Source of the DNA: Promethearchaeota archaeon
Lineage (GTDB): Archaea; Asgardarchaeota; Lokiarchaeia; Sigyniarchaeales; SOKP01
Assembly (NCBI GenBank): GCA_030606485.1
Contig: JAUWGH010000005.1
Span: 150,001 to 182,000, forward strand
DNA: 32,000 nt
Reading direction: 5' to 3'
Position numbers and translations under genes: made by a program. The notes below the pieces were generated by a model that did not search any database, was not told where the DNA came from, and saw only the letters and a program-made list of their open reading frames with translations. Positions 20,694 through 32,000 of the stretch are shown here, one piece after another (position 1 is the first letter of the stretch; every line of letters begins with the position of its first letter).

Positions 20694-23447
20694 ATGTATT
20701 TTATGATAAAAAAATTATCAAGATGCAATAAATGTCAACATAAAGTACTAATTATTCTTTTTATCAGTTTTTTCGTGTTTAATTTGTTTTATTACAATAA
20801 TTTTTCATTTAATCAAAAAGATAATTCAAGTTCTAATTTTCAAAATAAAGATAATCTCAATAATATATTTGATCCCTATTTTAATGAAAATTCACTTAAT
20901 CCCAAACTCTCAACAATTCCATTATTAGAAAATCCTTTTTTGAATCACTTAGATAATACTACTCAATTTTTTCTCGAGAATTTATACCAAAATGAATCTG
21001 TTTCATCAATTATGAATGGAACTTTTTTTCACAGTAGTAATAAAACAGGTGATACATTAGTAGATAACAGGATTTACTCATTAGATAACATTTTATATTC
21101 TTGGGGTTTCGGTTATGAAAATGATTCTTCTGATAATATCGATAGAATTAAAGAATTAAAAAAAAAGCCTTTGTGGTTATCTGAAAATGTCTCCGAATAC
21201 AACTATGGATTTATTCAATCTACTGATAGTAATGGTGGAGGAATTAATACAACTCGATATTTAATTGATAACGTTGCTGTATTATTGCCTTTAATAGAAA
21301 ATTATTATCAGGAATCTCCGGGAGAGAAGAGAGATGATGCAAAAGAGGTTCTGGAAACCCAATTTGAATTACTAAACACATCACAATTTTGGGATGATAC
21401 TGATACTAATGGAGGTTTTGTTCATTATAATAATAGTGATGTAAAATATGCTCATGAGAATTTTTTAGCTGTATTAGCAAATATCTTGTGGCATAGATAT
21501 GCTGATGAAAATCTTTCATATGGGGAAGAATGTTTAGATTTTGCAAGCTATACAATCTCAAATTTGAGCAGCTCCGAAATGTGGGATAATACTTTTAAAG
21601 GATTTTATTATGAAGCTGACCGAAACTGGAACCGTATTGGAGATAATTACAAATATTTAAAAACAAATGCATTGGGAATAATTGCTCTTACAGAATATTA
21701 TATAGAAACTGATAATGATACTGCAATTCATATGGCAGAAACAATATATCAAAATATTAAAGCAAATCTGTATAATGTTACTTATGGTGGATACGCTAAA
21801 TCTGGTCAGAATACCTGGACTCCTTACAATTATAGTTTAATGTTAGAAGATAATGCTTGGTACCTGATGGCGCTTACAAGGCTTTTTAAAGCAACAAGTA
21901 AAGAAGAATATTATGAAGATGCAATTGACCTATTTCAATTTTTTGAGACTTATATGTATGATAATGAAAATGGTGGATATATTTACTCCATCGGTCCCCC
22001 CAACAATATTACGGATAAGAATATTTTCGCAAATAACTTATTGATAAGAGCTTATCATGAAATGTCTGAAATTTTTCATAATACAGAACTAAAAGGAGAT
22101 TTAAACGATACTCTCTTAATTAAAGGCGAAGAAACTTTAAACTTAACCTGTAATTATAGAATATATAAAGAATATGTATTTGAGAATTCACAAACCTCAT
22201 TTACATTAATCAATAATACAGAGAATGCTAATATTACGTTCATAATAAGGTATCCAGATGATACCATATTAGAAATAATTAAACCTAATAATACAGATAG
22301 TTCTGGAAGCCAATCAATTATCTTTAAAGTTAATGATGATTTATCTGATGGCACATATTCTATATCTGTTTATGCAAATAAATCATACAGAGCAACGGCC
22401 TTTAATACTTTTTATTTTAATGTAATATCCGGGTTATCATTTAAATCAGATGAAATTGAAGGTCTTGACCATGGTATTTATCGAGGAGATACACTTGAAA
22501 TAAATCTTACAGTATCAAGTACAAGAAATAATAATGATTTCCTGAATCTTTATAGTGACAGTGATTCTTTTTCTGTTGATGACAAAAATATCATAATAAA
22601 TGGACAAACCGATACTAAATTTCCTATAAACATTACAGCGAATTCTAATGCCAATTTAGGAAACCAAACAATCAATTTCTACATAAAAAACGGAACAAAA
22701 ACATATTTAACATTCGATTTTACAATTTTTATCAACCAATCAATTGAAGTTTTATTAATATCCCATAAGTATGAAGTATTTGAAAATGACACATTACCGA
22801 TCTCAATGTCTTTTATAAATTACTTATCTGATATAGAACAAAGCGTTAAAGTTGAATTCTTTGGTTTATATATTGAAAATATTGATGAAAATGTTGATAT
22901 TGCTGCCAATACGATAAGCTCTAAGACCTTTTATGTCCAAGTTAATAATACTATTCATACTAATTCAATAATAATTAATATTAATGTCTCACGAGCTGGA
23001 GAATCTATTTATTTCAGTGAAAAGGAGATCTCTGTTATACAACCAATAGAAATAAAAAGTATATCTTTTCCATCTAGTGTATATCAAGGTCAACGAGCAT
23101 TTTTGATTATAAAAATTATTAATAATAGAGAAGTACCATTGAACTTTACTCTTTATATTAATAATATCCCATTTCCTACAAATTTAGATCAAATAGGATA
23201 TGGTGAAAATGAAATAATTGTTGATTTTACTCCATCCATAAATCCCTTCGATTTTGAAACTAAGGAGTATGTAATAAGTATAAAAGATGATTCTGGAAAA
23301 GTTCTAATTATAGAAACTTTCCAAACTGAAATAAGGCTCTCTGTTTTAAATTTTATGTTATTCTATTTGATTCCTATCTTGTTGCCTGTTTTAATCATTA
23401 TATATTATAAAAATAAAGAGATAAAAAGCAGAGAATTAGAAAAATAA
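20694..23447 (+). CDS. Large membrane-anchored surface glycoprotein: (alpha/alpha)6 six-hairpin glycosidase-like barrel, beta-sandwich stalk and C-terminal TM
   Basis: N-terminal hydrophobic segment. Six repeats of G(F/Y)...(K/R)YxxxN-helix, including EDNAWYLMALTRL...DNENGGY. Beta-rich C-terminal half with many NxS/T sequons, and terminal TM FMLFYLIPILLPVLIIIYY followed by KNK. Confidence 0.75.
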   Translation: MYFMIKKLSRCNKCQHKVLIILFISFFVFNLFYYNNFSFNQKDNSSSNFQNKDNLNNIFDPYFNENSLNPKLSTIPLLENPFLNHLDNTTQFFLENLYQNESVSSIMNGTFFHSSNKTGDTLVDNRIYSLDNILYSWGFGYENDSSDNIDRIKELKKKPLWLSENVSEYNYGFIQSTDSNGGGINTTRYLIDNVAVLLPLIENYYQESPGEKRDDAKEVLETQFELLNTSQFWDDTDTNGGFVHYNNSDVKYAHENFLAVLANILWHRYADENLSYGEECLDFASYTISNLSSSEMWDNTFKGFYYEADRNWNRIGDNYKYLKTNALGIIALTEYYIETDNDTAIHMAETIYQNIKANLYNVTYGGYAKSGQNTWTPYNYSLMLEDNAWYLMALTRLFKATSKEEYYEDAIDLFQFFETYMYDNENGGYIYSIGPPNNITDKNIFANNLLIRAYHEMSEIFHNTELKGDLNDTLLIKGEETLNLTCNYRIYKEYVFENSQTSFTLINNTENANITFIIRYPDDTILEIIKPNNTDSSGSQSIIFKVNDDLSDGTYSISVYANKSYRATAFNTFYFNVISGLSFKSDEIEGLDHGIYRGDTLEINLTVSSTRNNNDFLNLYSDSDSFSVDDKNIIINGQTDTKFPINITANSNANLGNQTINFYIKNGTKTYLTFDFTIFINQSIEVLLISHKYEVFENDTLPISMSFINYLSDIEQSVKVEFFGLYIENIDENVDIAANTISSKTFYVQVNNTIHTNSIIININVSRAGESIYFSEKEISVIQPIEIKSISFPSSVYQGQRAFLIIKIINNREVPLNFTLYINNIPFPTNLDQIGYGENEIIVDFTPSINPFDFETKEYVISIKDDSGKVLIIETFQTEIRLSVLNFMLFYLIPILLPVLIIIYYKNKEIKSRELEK

Positions 23448-23457
23448 GGTCACTAAT

Positions 23458-25206
23458 ATGAATTTGAATAAAAAATCTATTTTATTTATTTCACTACTTT
23501 TTAGTTCGTTATTAATTTCCAATTTTACAAATATTATTAGTAAAGAAATCCTAAAAGAAGAGAACCCAAATTATTTTTTATTAAAAAATCTTAGAACATC
23601 CCAAGTACATCCAATCGCATATGAAGATATTTTACGTAATACAACAGAGATTAAAAGATTTTACGACACAATCAATATAACCTTAAAAAATCTTGATGAT
23701 TTTTATAACGCAACCAAACTTGATGTTTATATTAACGTTTCCTTTACGAATGGTACATTAGTAAATTATTCAATGATTATTGTCGAAGATTTAAATATTT
23801 CATATTGGCTTTTTACTCCTGCTATTGATAGTATTTTGGAGATTCAATATGTAAATTTTTCTATATTTAATAAAACAGACCAAACTTTAATGAACACTCA
23901 AACTACACAAACAAATTTCACTATTTTAAATAATTTAGCTGAATGTGCTGCATATTTAAGCACCACAAAAATATATCGAAATCAATTTTTAAATGTAGAT
24001 ATATCACCTTGGGATGTTGAAGATCGAACTATTGATTTAAATTGGAAAACTACAATTGTAGATCAATCCTATAATCAAATAAAATCGATCGGTTTGAATA
24101 TATCTACCTTCCAACAAAAAATCGATAGTGCTTTTAGCGTTGTCAATGCTATTTATCGAATAAAAGTGAATATCACGGATAGTGATAATCATTCAGTTCA
24201 TTATTTTCCATTTGAGGTAATTAATTCTCCACCACAAATTGTAATAAGTCCAATAAATACAATAATAATCACACCAGATGATAGAGGTGTTAAACGAAGT
24301 TCAGAATTAGTTAGAATTACTCTAAATGTTACAGATATTGAAGATAGTTCACCCTCTAATGTTGATGTAAAGTTAATAATTGAAGATACTAATGGAGTTG
24401 AAGAACAACTCGTTTTTACAAACAATGGAGATGGCTCATACGAATTAGAATTTAATATTACAGCATCAAAACCAATGGGATGGTATGACTTAACTATAAT
24501 TGCTGAAGATCAGGATGGAGGAACTGATGAGCATTCAGATTATTTAATAGTAGAAAATAATCCCCCTGAAATTTTGGGGTATTACATTAATAATATGAGT
24601 ACAGAAAATAATATTTCGATTGGATATGGACTTGATTTGGTTTTCACATTTAATATTAGTGATGTTGAAGAATTTGAAGGCTTGGGATTTGTCAAAGTTT
24701 GTTTATTGAACTCAGAAAACAAATGGTTTAATGTTTCTAATAGATATTCTGAGAACGGAAGCATAACAATTAGAACAGTCGATTTAATCGGAGGAAAATG
24801 GTTAGTATATATCTTTGTTATTGATGCTGATGGTGCAGAAATTGGACTTGATATAGGATTCGATGATGCACCGCAAGAAATTGAGATAATTCCCGATATT
24901 TCTCCGATAATTACGTGGATATATATCATCTCCGCAATCATCTTTGGATTTGGGTTTGGATATATAATTTTTTTTATATTAAATAGTCGAAAAAGAGAGG
25001 AAATATCTAAAACCATAGAAAAAGAAAAAGTTAAGAAAATTAAACCGAGTGATAAGACAAAAAAAATTGTGAAGAAAAAAGATAAAAAAATTAAAAAAAT
25101 ACCAGAAGAAGCAGAAAAGGATGAAGAACCCGCACTCAAAGAAAAATCGGAAGATGAAGAAATAAAACCAAAATCTCAATTAAAAATTAAAAGAAAAATA
25201 AGATAA
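23458..25206 (+). CDS. Surface protein with tandem Ig/cadherin-like domains, C-terminal TM and K/E-rich cytoplasmic tail
   Basis: Signal-like N-terminus; NSPPQI and NNPPEI domain starts; ITDSD, VTDIED, AEDQDGG, ISDVEE and VIDADG motifs; TM ITWIYIISAIIFGFGFGYIIFFIL; about 75-aa charged tail. Starts 10 bp after the previous gene. Confidence 0.72.
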   Translation: MNLNKKSILFISLLFSSLLISNFTNIISKEILKEENPNYFLLKNLRTSQVHPIAYEDILRNTTEIKRFYDTINITLKNLDDFYNATKLDVYINVSFTNGTLVNYSMIIVEDLNISYWLFTPAIDSILEIQYVNFSIFNKTDQTLMNTQTTQTNFTILNNLAECAAYLSTTKIYRNQFLNVDISPWDVEDRTIDLNWKTTIVDQSYNQIKSIGLNISTFQQKIDSAFSVVNAIYRIKVNITDSDNHSVHYFPFEVINSPPQIVISPINTIIITPDDRGVKRSSELVRITLNVTDIEDSSPSNVDVKLIIEDTNGVEEQLVFTNNGDGSYELEFNITASKPMGWYDLTIIAEDQDGGTDEHSDYLIVENNPPEILGYYINNMSTENNISIGYGLDLVFTFNISDVEEFEGLGFVKVCLLNSENKWFNVSNRYSENGSITIRTVDLIGGKWLVYIFVIDADGAEIGLDIGFDDAPQEIEIIPDISPIITWIYIISAIIFGFGFGYIIFFILNSRKREEISKTIEKEKVKKIKPSDKTKKIVKKKDKKIKKIPEEAEKDEEPALKEKSEDEEIKPKSQLKIKRKIR

Positions 25207-25246: not shown

Positions 25247-26161
25247 TCAACTTAAAACTTCTAATAATTTATAATAAAATTTACCTAATTTTCCACCATA
25301 ATTGCCAGCTGAGATTCTTTTAATTCCTGATACTTGACAAGCTGCCTTTATCCCAACTTTCATTGCTTGCTTAATAGCTTCTTCTGTAATTCCATCAATA
25401 ATTACTTCATATACACAATTTTCTCCTTCCTTTAATTCTGAATCATCAATTTTATCCTTTAAGGTGGGACATAACGGATGATTTGTAGACGCACCTAAGA
25501 AACTATATTTAGAACCAACCTTAGATCCAGAACGAGCTATTCCTCCAGGAAAAGGACATATTACTAAATCAACATTCTTAATTACTTCAATCGCTCTTTC
25601 TGCAGCTTCTAATGTAGAATTTTGATCAATCCCATGAATTAAAAAATTACCACCAGCGATTCCTTTTCCACCTTTAAACATCTCTTGAACAATAAAAAAT
25701 CCGTCCATTACAGGAATTTTATATGCAACAAAATTATAGGTTGTTTCATCTTTCTCTTCAAACTTATCACCAAAAAATTTCAATTTAAATCCTGTCTTTA
25801 CTTCTACCATTTTCGCATTTGGATCATATTCTTTTGGAAATGCATCAAAACAGGCTGTTGTTGGGCAAGTTAAAACACATTGTCCAATCCGATCTAATAA
25901 TAAAGAATCAATATTTGCTTTTCCTTTAACAAAAAAGAGAAGTATTACACCTGGTCGGCCATCTGGAGTATCGTTCTCAGATACATATTTTTCAATTCCA
26001 GCTTCAGCCGGACAATGTATCGTTGATGTTGCAAAACCAGTCGTTACCTGAGCACATATGTCCAGCCATTTCTTATTTTTAGCAGTTACCAAAATGCGAC
26101 AAAACCAACCGGGAAATGCTTCACAGTATGTATCATCAATCAAAACGCCATTAATTTCCAT
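25247..26161 (-). CDS. ftr: Formylmethanofuran--tetrahydromethanopterin N-formyltransferase
   Basis: NGVLIDDTYCEAF, TGFATSTIHCPAEAGIE, TPDGRPG, RIGQCVLTCPTTACF, GIAGGNF, FPGGIARSGSKVGSKY, ASTNHPLCPTL, VYEVIIDG and ISAGNYGGKLG. Confidence 0.97.
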   Translation of the reverse strand: MEINGVLIDDTYCEAFPGWFCRILVTAKNKKWLDICAQVTTGFATSTIHCPAEAGIEKYVSENDTPDGRPGVILLFFVKGKANIDSLLLDRIGQCVLTCPTTACFDAFPKEYDPNAKMVEVKTGFKLKFFGDKFEEKDETTYNFVAYKIPVMDGFFIVQEMFKGGKGIAGGNFLIHGIDQNSTLEAAERAIEVIKNVDLVICPFPGGIARSGSKVGSKYSFLGASTNHPLCPTLKDKIDDSELKEGENCVYEVIIDGITEEAIKQAMKVGIKAACQVSGIKRISAGNYGGKLGKFYYKLLEVLS

Positions 26162-28186: not shown

Positions 28187-28570
28187 TGGCGATCACTTGA
28201 ATTTTATGTAGAGAATTGTGTTTCATTGCTGGGAATAACGATTTTTGGTTCCAATTCGCTCAGTTTGCCAGTATTTCTCAATTTATTTTCTTTATTTTAG
28301 ATTTATTATGTCATTTTGCGTTGTAGATAACTTTTCTTTGATATTTTGGCTAATATTTAGATAAAATTTTAAATATTAAAAAAAGGCTTATTTTGTTTGA
28401 CTTAATTTGCTGTTTAATCGAGTTAAAACTAAAATTTTAGTAAAATTTTTAAGATTTGCTTCATGAGAAAATCTTACAAACCAAAATTAGGAGATTTATT
28501 CTAACTTGTTTTGTAGGTTTATTTCTTATTTCAATCAATATATAAAAAAATAAAATGAGGTCCTTACTCT

Positions 28571-31500
28571 TTGAGTAGTTATTTAAAAACCAAGATAGTC
28601 GAAAAAATTAGGTTCGGAATCCTCTCTCCAGATGAAATACGTAAATTATCTAGTGCTAGAATAATTACTGCCGATACATATGATGAAGATGGTCTCCCTA
28701 TCCCATCTGGCCTTATGGATCAACGTTTGGGCACGATTGAACCTGGCCAACGTTGTCGAACGTGCGGAAATCTTGTAAGTCAATGTATGGGACATTTTGG
28801 TCACATCGAAATGGCAAGACCCATTATTCATTGCGGATATGCAAAGAAGGTTTTAAAGATCCTCCGTAGCATATGCCCAGAATGTTCAATGCTCATGCTC
28901 ACACATGAAGAAAAGGAAAAATCCATTAAAGAACAAGAGAAACATCGTGAGATGTATTTTGAAAGTGATGTAGAATTAACTAAGTTAATTTTTAAATCAG
29001 CGAGAAAAACAAAAAAATGTCCATATTGTGGAGCAAGAAAGAAAAAAATTGTTATTGAGAAACCAACTACTTTTTATGAAGAGGAGGAGGGTAAAGGTTC
29101 AAGAAGATTGACTCCAATGGATATTAGAGAAAGGTTAATACAAATTTCTGATAATGACCTTAGAATTATGGGAATCTCTCCAGCTTCTGCTAGACCAGAA
29201 TGGACAATATTGGAGGTTTTACCCATCCCACCAGTTTGTGTTAGACCTTCAATTACTTTAGATAGTGGAATTAGATCGGAGGATGATTTAACTCATAAAT
29301 TAGTTGATGTAATCCGTATAAACCAAAGATTGAGAGAAAATCTTGACGCTGGCGCACCACATCTTATTGTGGAAGACCTGTGGGAACTTTTACAATACCA
29401 TATTACAACATATTTTGATAATGAAGTTTCTGGAATTCCTCCTGCACGGCATAGATCTGGTAGAGCCTTAAGAACAATTACACAGAGATTAAAGGGTAAG
29501 GAGGGACGATTTAGAAGTAATTTGAGTGGAAAACGAGTAGATTTTTCCGCCAGAAGTGTAATTTCACCTAATCCTCATATTAGTATTAATGATGTTGGAG
29601 TACCAGTCAGTATTGCAAAAATACTCACAATTCCATCAAACGTAAATCCTTGGAATATTGAAGAGATGAAACAACTGGTTATAAATGGACCTATTGATCA
29701 TCCGGGAGCAAATTATATAATAAGAACTGATAATCGTAGAATAGATCTCCGATATGTTAAGAATAGAGATGTAATTGCAGAAACTCTAGTGCCTGGTTAT
29801 ATTGTTGAAAGGCACCTTAATAATGGAGATTTAGTTTTATTTAATCGCCAACCTTCACTCCATAGAATGTCAATTATGGCTCATGAAGTAAAAATTATGG
29901 ACGGAAGAACATTTAGATTAAATTTGACAATTTGTCCTCCATATAATGCAGATTTTGACGGGGATGAGATGAATTTACATGTCCCACAGAGTGAAGAGGC
30001 AAGGACTGAAGCAGAATTACTTTTAAAAGTTCAAGAACATATGTTATCTCCTCGTTTTGGTGGACCAATAATAGGTGGAATTCAGGATTTTATATCTACT
30101 GTTTATCAATTTACAAGTAAGGACTCTGTTTATAATATTAAGGATACTTTAAAATTATTATATTTAGGTAGAATATTTGACACAAATCCAGATTTTTCAA
30201 TAAATGATTTAACACCAGTAATAACTGATCCAGAACCAAAATATTCTGGAAAGTCAATTTTTAGTGCATTATTTCCAAAAGACTTAAATTTACGGCAAAG
30301 ATCAAAGTTTTGCAAGAAATGTGACGTATGTAAAGAGTATGATTGTGAATTTGATGCATATGTTCATATTGAAAACGGGAATTTGTTAACTGGAACTATT
30401 GATGAAGCAACTTTTGGAGCAATGAAACCAAATAGTATTTTACACCGAATAATAAAAGATAATGGAAATGAAAGAGGGAGAGTGTTTTTGGATAATTCGA
30501 TACAAATGCTCCTTCATGTAATCAGAATGAATGGGATTACTATTGGTCTAGATGAAGTTTTTGTAAAAGGTGATGCAATGGAAGAAATCATAAATGCTCT
30601 AGATAAAGCAAATATAGAATGTGAAGAACTCATAAAAGCATACCATAATAAAGATGACACTATTTTATCTCGAGCCCCAGGAAGAACTTTAAAAGAAACT
30701 TTGGAATTAAGAATTAGAGGGATATTAAACGATGCAAGAAAGAAAGCTGAAACGATTGCCTCCATTGATATTGGAGATCAAGCCCATTCGGTTATAATGA
30801 CAAAGTCTGGAGCGCGAGGTAATCCTCTAAATCTTGGTCAAATGGCTGCAGTGGTTGGGCAACAAGCAATTCGGGGAGAAAGAATACATCGAGGTTATAT
30901 GAAGAGAACATTACCTCACTATAAGATTAATGATCTCTCTGCTAAAGCAAGAGGATTTGTTTCCTCATCATATCGAAAAGGTTTAAATCCTGAAGAGTTT
31001 TTCTTCCATTCAATGGGTGGTAGAGAGGGACTTGTTGATACTGCTGTTAGAACCAGTCAGAGTGGATATATGCAAAGAAGGTTAGTTAATGCATTACAAG
31101 ATGTAATTGTTGAAAATGATAATACTGTAAGAGATGCTAATAAGAGTATTGTTCAATTTCAATTTGGCGATGATGGAATTGACCCCTCTAAGAGCGACCA
31201 TGGTTTAGCAATAAACCTTGATCTTTTAATATTAAAAGCCAAAGCGTTAAAATCTATCAAGAAAATACCAATTATTAAAACTTCGGTGAAAAAAGCACCA
31301 GTGAAAAAAGCACCAGTGAAAAAAGCACCAGTGAAAAAAGCACCAGTGAAAAAAGCACCAGTGAAAAAAGCATCAGTGAAAAAAGTTCCAGTAAAAAAAG
31401 CATCAGTGAAAAAAGTTCCAGTAAAAAAAACAAAAAAAAAAATTCTAAAGCAACCAACGAAAAAAGATAAAAAAAGTCCTGATGAAGAATCTATAATCCA

Positions 31501-31600
31501 AGAATTTGAAAATGAAACGGGGAAAAAGGCAATCTGGCGTGGAAAACAAACAAAACAATTTAATGAATGGAAAAAAGAAAAATATGGAGTTAAAAAATAA
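28571..31600 (+). CDS. rpoA1: DNA-directed RNA polymerase subunit A' (Rpo1N) with a ~120-aa C-terminal extension
   Basis: FGILSPDEIR, CRTCGN...CMGHFGH, KGKEGRFRSNLSGKRVDFSARSVI, LFNRQPSLH, YNADFDGDEMN (catalytic), HSMGGREGLVDTAVRTSQSGYMQRRL. Core ends near GDDGIDPSKSDHG (H877). Confidence 0.98.
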   Translation: MSSYLKTKIVEKIRFGILSPDEIRKLSSARIITADTYDEDGLPIPSGLMDQRLGTIEPGQRCRTCGNLVSQCMGHFGHIEMARPIIHCGYAKKVLKILRSICPECSMLMLTHEEKEKSIKEQEKHREMYFESDVELTKLIFKSARKTKKCPYCGARKKKIVIEKPTTFYEEEEGKGSRRLTPMDIRERLIQISDNDLRIMGISPASARPEWTILEVLPIPPVCVRPSITLDSGIRSEDDLTHKLVDVIRINQRLRENLDAGAPHLIVEDLWELLQYHITTYFDNEVSGIPPARHRSGRALRTITQRLKGKEGRFRSNLSGKRVDFSARSVISPNPHISINDVGVPVSIAKILTIPSNVNPWNIEEMKQLVINGPIDHPGANYIIRTDNRRIDLRYVKNRDVIAETLVPGYIVERHLNNGDLVLFNRQPSLHRMSIMAHEVKIMDGRTFRLNLTICPPYNADFDGDEMNLHVPQSEEARTEAELLLKVQEHMLSPRFGGPIIGGIQDFISTVYQFTSKDSVYNIKDTLKLLYLGRIFDTNPDFSINDLTPVITDPEPKYSGKSIFSALFPKDLNLRQRSKFCKKCDVCKEYDCEFDAYVHIENGNLLTGTIDEATFGAMKPNSILHRIIKDNGNERGRVFLDNSIQMLLHVIRMNGITIGLDEVFVKGDAMEEIINALDKANIECEELIKAYHNKDDTILSRAPGRTLKETLELRIRGILNDARKKAETIASIDIGDQAHSVIMTKSGARGNPLNLGQMAAVVGQQAIRGERIHRGYMKRTLPHYKINDLSAKARGFVSSSYRKGLNPEEFFFHSMGGREGLVDTAVRTSQSGYMQRRLVNALQDVIVENDNTVRDANKSIVQFQFGDDGIDPSKSDHGLAINLDLLILKAKALKSIKKIPIIKTSVKKAPVKKAPVKKAPVKKAPVKKAPVKKASVKKVPVKKASVKKVPVKKTKKKILKQPTKKDKKSPDEESIIQEFENETGKKAIWRGKQTKQFNEWKKEKYGVKK
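31286..31435 (+). repeat. In-frame 15-bp tandem repeat (GTGAAAAAAGCACCA) encoding VKKAP-type pentapeptides
   Basis: Five identical units (31286-31360), then VKKAS, VKKVP, VKKAS, VKKVP (to 31420) and a degenerate VKKTK (31421-31435). Confidence 0.97.
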
Positions 31601-31621
31601 AATTTTACAATCTAGAGGTAA

Positions 31622-32000
<379 letters not shown>

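Follow-up and report, generated by a model that had tools for sequence, protein, structure and literature searches.

A lysine-rich linker and a conserved terminal module at the end of RNA polymerase subunit A' in a lineage of Promethearchaeota

The cores of RNA polymerases are among the most conserved of machines, and regulation attaches at their appendages, such as the C-terminal domain (CTD) of the bacterial alpha subunit, crenarchaeal Rpo13 and the CTD of RNA polymerase II (Pol II). The rpoA' gene of a Promethearchaeota archaeon, which encodes subunit A' (Rpo1N), raises the question of what such an appendage consists of and what it is for, as its reading frame runs on for 119 amino acids (aa) after the usual end of the protein. 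The gene lies in the 32,000 nucleotides that we analysed (the window: assembly GCA_030606485.1, contig JAUWGH010000005.1, positions 150,001 to 182,000), and coordinates are those of the window unless another contig or locus is named. A preliminary description of this DNA saw in the extension a polybasic arm like the tails of histone H1. The tail itself, its position, its predicted disorder and its recent repeat are borne out by our analysis; the polybasic repeat is not the conserved element, and what related genomes share is a module at the end of the protein that was not mentioned there.

The terminal module of subunit A'

The rpoA' open reading frame (ORF; 28571..31600, plus strand) has a TTG start, no internal stop and a length of 1009 aa. 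It encodes a full-length A', with Pfam Rpb1 domains 1-5 all present and in order, and with scores above the curated cut-offs for NF006336 (1327 bits, cut-off 819) and TIGR02390 (1286 bits, cut-off 1043). These models cover aa 7-890 and aa 8-886 respectively, and the 119 extra aa lie beyond model positions 883 and 867, so that the frame does continue past about aa 890 as had been described. The C-terminus has three parts: the end of the core at aa 890, a Lys-rich linker of about 80 aa, and a terminal module of 34 aa (Table 1). The protein ends at the A'/A'' split, with a TAA stop and with rpoA'' (recognised by TIGR02389) following 27 bp later, as was also described, and on these grounds it belongs to Rpo1N.

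With regard to its position, the alignment of A' to yeast Rpb1 ends at residue 876 and that of A'' begins at residue 1031, and the tail thus leaves the enzyme at the place of the Rpb1 foot, an insertion of about 150 residues, in agreement with the preliminary description. The foot and the tail share this position, but the module profile matches no Rpb1 chain in the PDB at E up to 10. The statement that typical archaeal A' subunits carry no such tail holds for the solved structures, which end at most 13 aa after the aligned core, and fails for two families of Promethearchaeia, here called f1 and f2, in which every sampled A' has one.

Orthologues were sought by six-frame searches of 40 related genomes, with A' found in 37, and we read 30 fetched tails, all from the same order, together with other open frames. 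In every tail read from families f1 and f2 the plan is the same, with a variable linker leading to the motif [FY]xxETGKxA[IV]WRGxxTxx[YF]xxW. A comparison of Rpo1N C-termini, which the preliminary description had proposed, thus finds the tail in all of these subunits, with repeats that vary and a conserved part that is the module, aa 972-1005. Alignment of 38 modules showed an A and a T that do not vary, and at least 90% conservation of T, K, R, G and W. In the 30 orthologues, all four synonymous codons occur at the invariant T, A and T of the terminal module and at the near-invariant Gly positions, and the conserved Arg is encoded by both CGN and AGA. The use of all synonymous codons at invariant positions indicates that selection acts on the protein and that the tail is read in the rpoA' frame. 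The module is the conserved and selected part of the tail, and the linker a fast-evolving spacer that changes by expansion and contraction of tandem repeats.

AlphaFold2 (AF2) predicted the same fold from two different alignments, one of the 55-aa module and one of the last 179 aa: a helix, a beta-hairpin and a second helix, with a predicted local distance difference test score (pLDDT) of 84-90. In the prediction the hairpin is a two-residue beta-hairpin with R-G at its tip; the first helix is acidic and the last is basic. The A' tails of family f2 have two or three copies of the module. They also have an additional conserved segment of about 50 aa containing HPEFPV before the Lys-rich part, which may be a folded, foot-like extension.

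The module has no match in Pfam or NCBIfam at E of 0.01 or below, a sequence-profile search of the PDB found nothing relevant, and Foldseek against the PDB gave no match at E of 0.001 or below. The PHROGs gave only weak, unannotated matches, tblastn against 50,697 phage records gave none, and an ESM Atlas feature search of named clusters gave no usable match. A literature search found no publication that describes the tail or the module, and we regard the module as a new, uncharacterised domain.

Several candidate identities were rejected. Phage_Gene33 (PF25742) matched 10 of the 38 module members at 13-16 bits, below its cut-off of 27 everywhere, and was silent in control genomes. The hybrid-binding domain of RNase H1 (Cauli_VI) matched four of the 38 (E about 0.02-0.08 over 14 residues), and was dropped because the predicted secondary structure of the module differs from that of the Cauli_VI domain. 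Resemblances to LEM/HeH/SAP and Sso7d-like domains were considered, and no Pfam or structure match supports them. The module is not a canonical AT-hook, as W-R-G-K-x-T lies in a predicted beta-hairpin of a folded module and the tail has no GRP core.

The appendage is lineage-wide on the Lokiarchaeal RNA polymerase of families f1 and f2, where the module profile matched all 43 sampled genomes and every sampled A' has the tail. Elsewhere in the phylum, 157 genomes from 25 other families gave no match to the profile. Among 5.8 billion proteins the module has 388 matches; of these, 120 were listed, and A' subunits make up nearly all of the list. A Promethearchaeia archaeon metagenome-assembled genome is the nearest named record. 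Six of the matches that carry the labels Heimdall-, Thor-, Odin- or Hermodarchaeota were compared; since their cores share about 77% identity with this A' core, as members of the family do, we take these labels to be loose.

Within the same order, A' stops right after the core in two genomes of family f4, and one incomplete genome of family f3 has a Lys-rich tail with no module in an assembly that has Ns at that point. The other orders of the class have either an unsplit rpoA or one whose split lies about 50 aa further downstream, and neither form has the module. The unsplit form was seen in two other families of the class (L068, G224:C75:9000-17500; L069, G222:C111:8000-17500), with A' and A'' in one frame of 1844-2293 aa. 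Both have intein-like insertions (LAGLIDADG-type blocks) in the A'' part, and L069 has one more in A'. The downstream split was seen in a third family (L070, G226:C10; L071, G225:C112), where A' ends in a helical segment that is the N-terminus of A'' in this window. An intein-like insertion is also present in A' near the catalytic NADFDGD in a genome of the same family as ours (L072, G216:C29), where the frame is 1485 aa long and the tail and module are kept.

What the module may contact

In this genome only four proteins have the module: A', a zinc-ribbon fusion, and two receiver proteins encoded in tandem. The zinc-ribbon protein has 248 aa and carries two modules; the fusion is genus-specific, and in other genera the zinc-ribbon protein stands alone. 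Each of the tandem paralogues (L004:1483-2343 and L005:1456-2343; genome C8:52454-54656) has an N-terminal module, which is followed about 10 aa downstream by a weak ribbon-helix-helix match and then by a HisKA-like segment and a receiver domain, an unusual layout for a one-protein regulator; the family has 374 members in the ESM Atlas, from Promethearchaeota. Gene neighbourhoods of the module genes revealed no link, and the zinc-ribbon case is a fusion within the genus.

Beyond this genome, a library of 1.8 billion representatives gave only 59 module matches at E of 0.001 or below, including at least one that arose by chance, to an unrelated repeat protein. The set includes arrays of up to eight modules with Lys-rich linkers between them, and fusions to Ras/Arf-like GTPases, FG-GAP/BBS-like beta-propellers, a PD-(D/E)XK nuclease and a membrane-anchored beta-helix protein; a fusion to a transposase helix-turn-helix (HTH) domain also occurs. 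A structure search of the ESM Atlas adds leucine-rich repeat (LRR) proteins and ABC and MoxR-type ATPases, all from Promethearchaeota. Recurrent across family f1 is a polytopic membrane protein (about 257 aa; L146:373-1140, L147:881-1648) that has a C-terminal module behind an acidic linker and a weak match to PIG-P (E 1e-5).

We suggest, giving it about an even chance of being correct, that the module is a contact domain tethered to the polymerase by the linker, and that its ligand is most likely nucleic acid. The idea of a leash comes by analogy from the combination of a folded mini-domain with a long flexible tether. The closest analogy is with the CTD of the bacterial alpha subunit, a small folded domain on a flexible linker that reaches DNA or regulators, as in both cases a small folded domain would hang from the polymerase core on a disordered linker. 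The tail leaves the enzyme where Rpb1 has its foot, and from there the module could sweep over tens of nanometres to its ligand. By its charge and its hairpin Arg, that ligand would most likely be AT-rich duplex DNA, with the Lys-rich linker adding non-specific affinity and the length and charge of the tether being free to drift.

The analogy has its limits. The alpha CTD is about 85 aa long and is carried by the assembly-platform subunit, whereas the module is about 34 aa long, is carried by A' and has a different fold; no sequence or structure match between the two was found, and the linker is here much longer and driven by repeats. In its lineage-specific occurrence the element also resembles Rpo13, a small helical subunit of crenarchaeal polymerase with a Lys-rich C-terminal tail reported at downstream DNA. 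Both are appendages of archaeal RNA polymerase in which two short helices go with a Lys-rich, disordered stretch, and neither is present in other archaea. However, Rpo13 is a separate subunit of some Crenarchaeota, while this element is fused to A' in two families of Promethearchaeia, and scans of the tail with Pfam gave no match to Rpo13 families.

With regard to the ligand, several features point to nucleic acid. The module occurs with Lys-rich linkers in A' as well as in the multi-module arrays, a conserved basic hairpin lies at the centre of the module, and in the receiver proteins the module adjoins a putative DNA-binding ribbon-helix-helix. There are also the fusions to nuclease, zinc-ribbon and HTH proteins, and the window has a G+C content of 29%. 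A further hint comes from a VIA search of about 48,000 representative solved chains, in which the DNA-binding domain of Lsr2 (6qkp) ranked first, though tied with unrelated chains and with a Z of only 2.9 (rmsd, the root-mean-square deviation, 6.4 A over 48 residues). The module, as predicted, has the order of elements of the Lsr2 domain (helix, RGR loop, helix), with a basic R-G-K/R turn, but helix 1 is basic in Lsr2 and acidic in the module.

Homology to Lsr2 was nevertheless not supported: hhalign of 22 modules against eight Lsr2 C-terminal domains, from actinobacterial genomes and fetched via the Lsr2 N-terminal domain PF11774, gave a probability of 0.4 and an E of 0.14 over 24 aligned columns. 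In this genome PF11774 gave noise only. The likeness may be convergent or due to chance, with a similar topology and a basic turn being possible.

The lean towards nucleic acid is slight, and a guess, a protein partner being about equally probable. Several observations weigh on the other side. Homology to Lsr2 is not supported, helix 1 is strongly acidic, and paralogous modules have Ser, Lys or His in place of the hairpin Arg. The module is also present on the membrane protein and on GTPases, propellers, LRR proteins and ABC/MoxR ATPases that have no obvious link to DNA, and this spread of fusions is no less compatible with a shared protein hub or a localisation signal. In addition the linker has a net charge near zero or below in several orthologues, and charge-driven binding by the linker is therefore not a general function.

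The strongest alternative is that the module is a protein-docking tag, which binds a common partner or hub, or another copy of the module, and so recruits the polymerase to the site of the other carriers, the linker being a spacer. We consider this possible, though less likely than the first reading. It would account for the promiscuous, mostly terminal fusions to unrelated classes of protein, usually behind low-complexity linkers, for scaffold-like proteins with up to eight modules, and for the sharing of the polymerase's module by regulator-like receiver proteins. The residues that do not vary (T, G, A, T, W) look like structural ones, and the tip of the hairpin varies among paralogues, both of which suit this alternative. 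However, it receives no help from the gene neighbourhoods, and it leaves the frequency of Lys-rich linkers unexplained. Binding of nucleic acid and docking to a protein hub are not mutually exclusive.

Whichever ligand the tethered domain has, its identity would show how transcription is coupled to DNA, chromatin or cell structure. The archaea in question are a clade of the archaeal group closest to eukaryotes, and in them the polymerase carries an undescribed module, predicted to be folded, on a disordered linker anchored at the site of the Rpb1 foot; the module would define a new domain family with several hundred members. A bolder proposal, to which we give little credence, is that the module is a lineage-specific Asgard address tag that brings polymerase, membrane protein, small GTPases, propellers and regulators together on one common structure, and that, given its place at the A'/A'' junction, a tailed fusion of A' and A'' could have seeded the foot of Rpb1. 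If so, the common structure could be, for example, chromatin or DNA at the membrane, or a hub formed by the cytoskeleton or by a scaffold, and these archaea would have a rudimentary spatial organisation of transcription.

The linker and its tandem repeat

The linker is the part of the tail on which the preliminary description was based. Tandem Repeats Finder (TRF) reports 9.6 copies of a 15-bp unit with 89% matches and a score of 232, and the codons agree with the nine complete repeats that were described, followed by a Lys run. The linker of this strain has a net charge of +32 and 41% Lys, and none of the other orthologue tails in the comparison of 30 has one as long or as basic. In the AF2 prediction for the last 179 aa, residues 895-971 have no secondary structure (pLDDT about 48-59); the linker is thus predicted to be intrinsically disordered, and in this the preliminary description of a disordered arm agrees with the model.

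Other linkers differ from this one in almost every respect. The net charge varies between -6 and +32 among the 30 orthologues, and the linker sequences are unrelated. Many are rich in Lys, Pro and Ala, and a few have precomputed HC2 matches. In other genera the linker has independent and unrelated repeats, among them a Thr/Pro/Lys decamer and a unit of Lys, Glu and Pro. Variation is also found at close range. The 90% identity cluster of this A' has 28 members of 973-1009 aa, and its 14 full-length tails differ mainly in the number of pentapeptide units, from about one to nine; a genome of the same genus, with an aligned A' C-terminal part that is 98% identical, has three. The VKKAP expansion is thus a recent, length-polymorphic change to the linker, as had been expected. 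The strains with about one to nine units form a natural allelic series for the effects of linker length and charge.

The number of units in public reads deserves comment, as mapping of reads over the repeat had been proposed. Both flanks and the junctions between units are recovered in Logan contigs from three DNA studies; these k=31 contigs break within the repeat, stopping at 31315 and resuming at 31400, and the 9.6 copies are thus the figure of this assembly. In runs X1 and X3 there are two short unitigs of the 15-nt cycle, at about 2x and at most 1x the depth of the flanks by a rough estimate. Five perfect units would give unitig depths of 4x and 3x, and the figures hint, roughly, that about three perfect units dominate in these two samples. 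A contig from RNA library X17 reaches 31315, which is no proof that the tail is transcribed.

Just 3' of the repeat, the in-frame A8-C-A11 runs are slippage-prone, and a shift of frame there would remove the module. In relatives the homopolymer run is broken, with K-N-K in place of K-K-K. In one ENA contig of 1038 bp (P0020) a Lys-rich segment and the module have been called as a separate 71-aa ORF between fragments of polymerase genes, as a result either of a true gene fission or of a frameshift in the low-complexity stretch.

We can now consider the reading given in the preliminary description, in which the polybasic (VKKAP)n arm is the functional part, binding or condensing DNA or RNA in the manner of H1 and HupB, or forming condensates, with the module secondary. 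The charge and Lys content of this linker are in its favour, as are the many orthologue linkers rich in Lys, Pro and Ala and the few with HC2 matches. The tail also has matches to HC2 (PF07382, 21.3 bits against a cut-off of 40), to a Burkholderia H1-like family (NF038053, 24.5 against 80) and to the Rv3852 family (NF050153, 30.4 against 100). However these scores are so far below the curated cut-offs that we read the matches as compositional, and reject an H1-like identity; a single-protein sequence scan gave mostly unrelated bacterial loci with KKAP repeats, and the repeat patterns by themselves pick up many such loci.

There is a likeness to the tails of H1, HupB and chlamydial Hc2 in the Lys/Ala/Pro pentapeptides and in weak compositional matches. 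The difference is that here the repeat links an enzyme to a folded module and is not the tail of a nucleoid protein, and that it is unconserved even within the genus. The orthologue linkers, with their range of charge and no conserved sequence, argue against the repeat as the characteristic feature, and a unit number that varies so widely at 90% identity or more is not tightly constrained. We conclude that the H1-like character is a strain-level state and not a conserved property. As the conservation and the evidence from synonymous codons are concentrated on the module, we think it improbable that the arm itself is the functional part.

A tail of the Pol II CTD type was also considered and rejected. 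Both are repetitive, disordered appendages of the largest subunit, but the Pol II CTD is at the C-terminus of the A'' equivalent and has conserved heptads, whereas this tail is at the end of A' (about residue 876 of Rpb1), and its repeats are strain-specific, with neither unit nor copy number conserved among strains.

An artefact, either a mis-assembled repeat or a missed frameshift with the true end of A' near aa 890 or within the repeat, might be suspected from the breaks in the public contigs, the A11 run in frame and the separate 71-aa ORF, but is close to refuted by the same in-frame architecture in dozens of independent assemblies and across genera, by a module downstream of the repeat that is in frame and under selection as protein, and by the flanks and unit junctions reproduced in three independent studies.

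Features of the locus and neighbouring genes

The features of the locus are given in Table 1. The 5' part of rpoA'' aligns to solved Rpo1C chains and to residues 1031-1121 of yeast Rpb1.

Table 1. Features of the rpoA' tail and its surroundings, in window coordinates
Feature	Position	Strand	Basis
rpoA' (Rpo1N) core, aa 1-890	28571..31240	+	Pfam Rpb1_1 to Rpb1_5, NF006336, TIGR02390
Lys-rich low-complexity linker, aa 891-971, net charge about +32	31241..31483	+	AF2 prediction; charge and composition computed
15-bp tandem repeat, 9.6 copies	31286..31429	+	TRF, codon listing
(VKKAP)5	31286..31360	+	Codon listing
(VKKAS-VKKVP)2	31361..31420	+	Codon listing
Partial repeat unit (VKK)	31421..31429	+	Codon listing
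A8-C-A11 homopolymer runs, in frame (KKTKKK)	31423..31442	+	Sequence reading, TRF period-1 row
Terminal module, aa 972-1005: predicted acidic helix, beta-hairpin (R-G tip), basic helix	31484..31585	+	Alignment, AF2, 43/43 genomes
Last four residues GVKK and TAA stop (TAA 31598..31600)	31586..31600	+	Sequence
27-bp spacer with GAGGT (31615..31619, 8 nt 5' of the rpoA'' ATG)	31601..31627	+	Sequence
rpoA'' (Rpo1C) 5' part, ATG at 31628, continues beyond the window	31628..32000	+	TIGR02389, E 2e-43

Upstream of rpoA' (28187..28570) there is a gap of 385 bp and a 115-aa ORF with no family. The rpoB gene is not upstream, and the sole rpoB match (unsplit, 1133 aa) is on another contig (C6:95664-96785); with rpoB elsewhere and the gap and familyless ORF 5' of rpoA', the usual rpoH-rpoB-rpoA operon is broken up. 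Further upstream, at 20694..25206, are two adjacent large ORFs of 917 and 582 aa with no Pfam family, apart from a weak match to MG2 (alpha-2-macroglobulin) in the second. The pair is adjoined by a gene for formylmethanofuran-tetrahydromethanopterin (H4MPT) formyltransferase at 25247..26161 on the minus strand.

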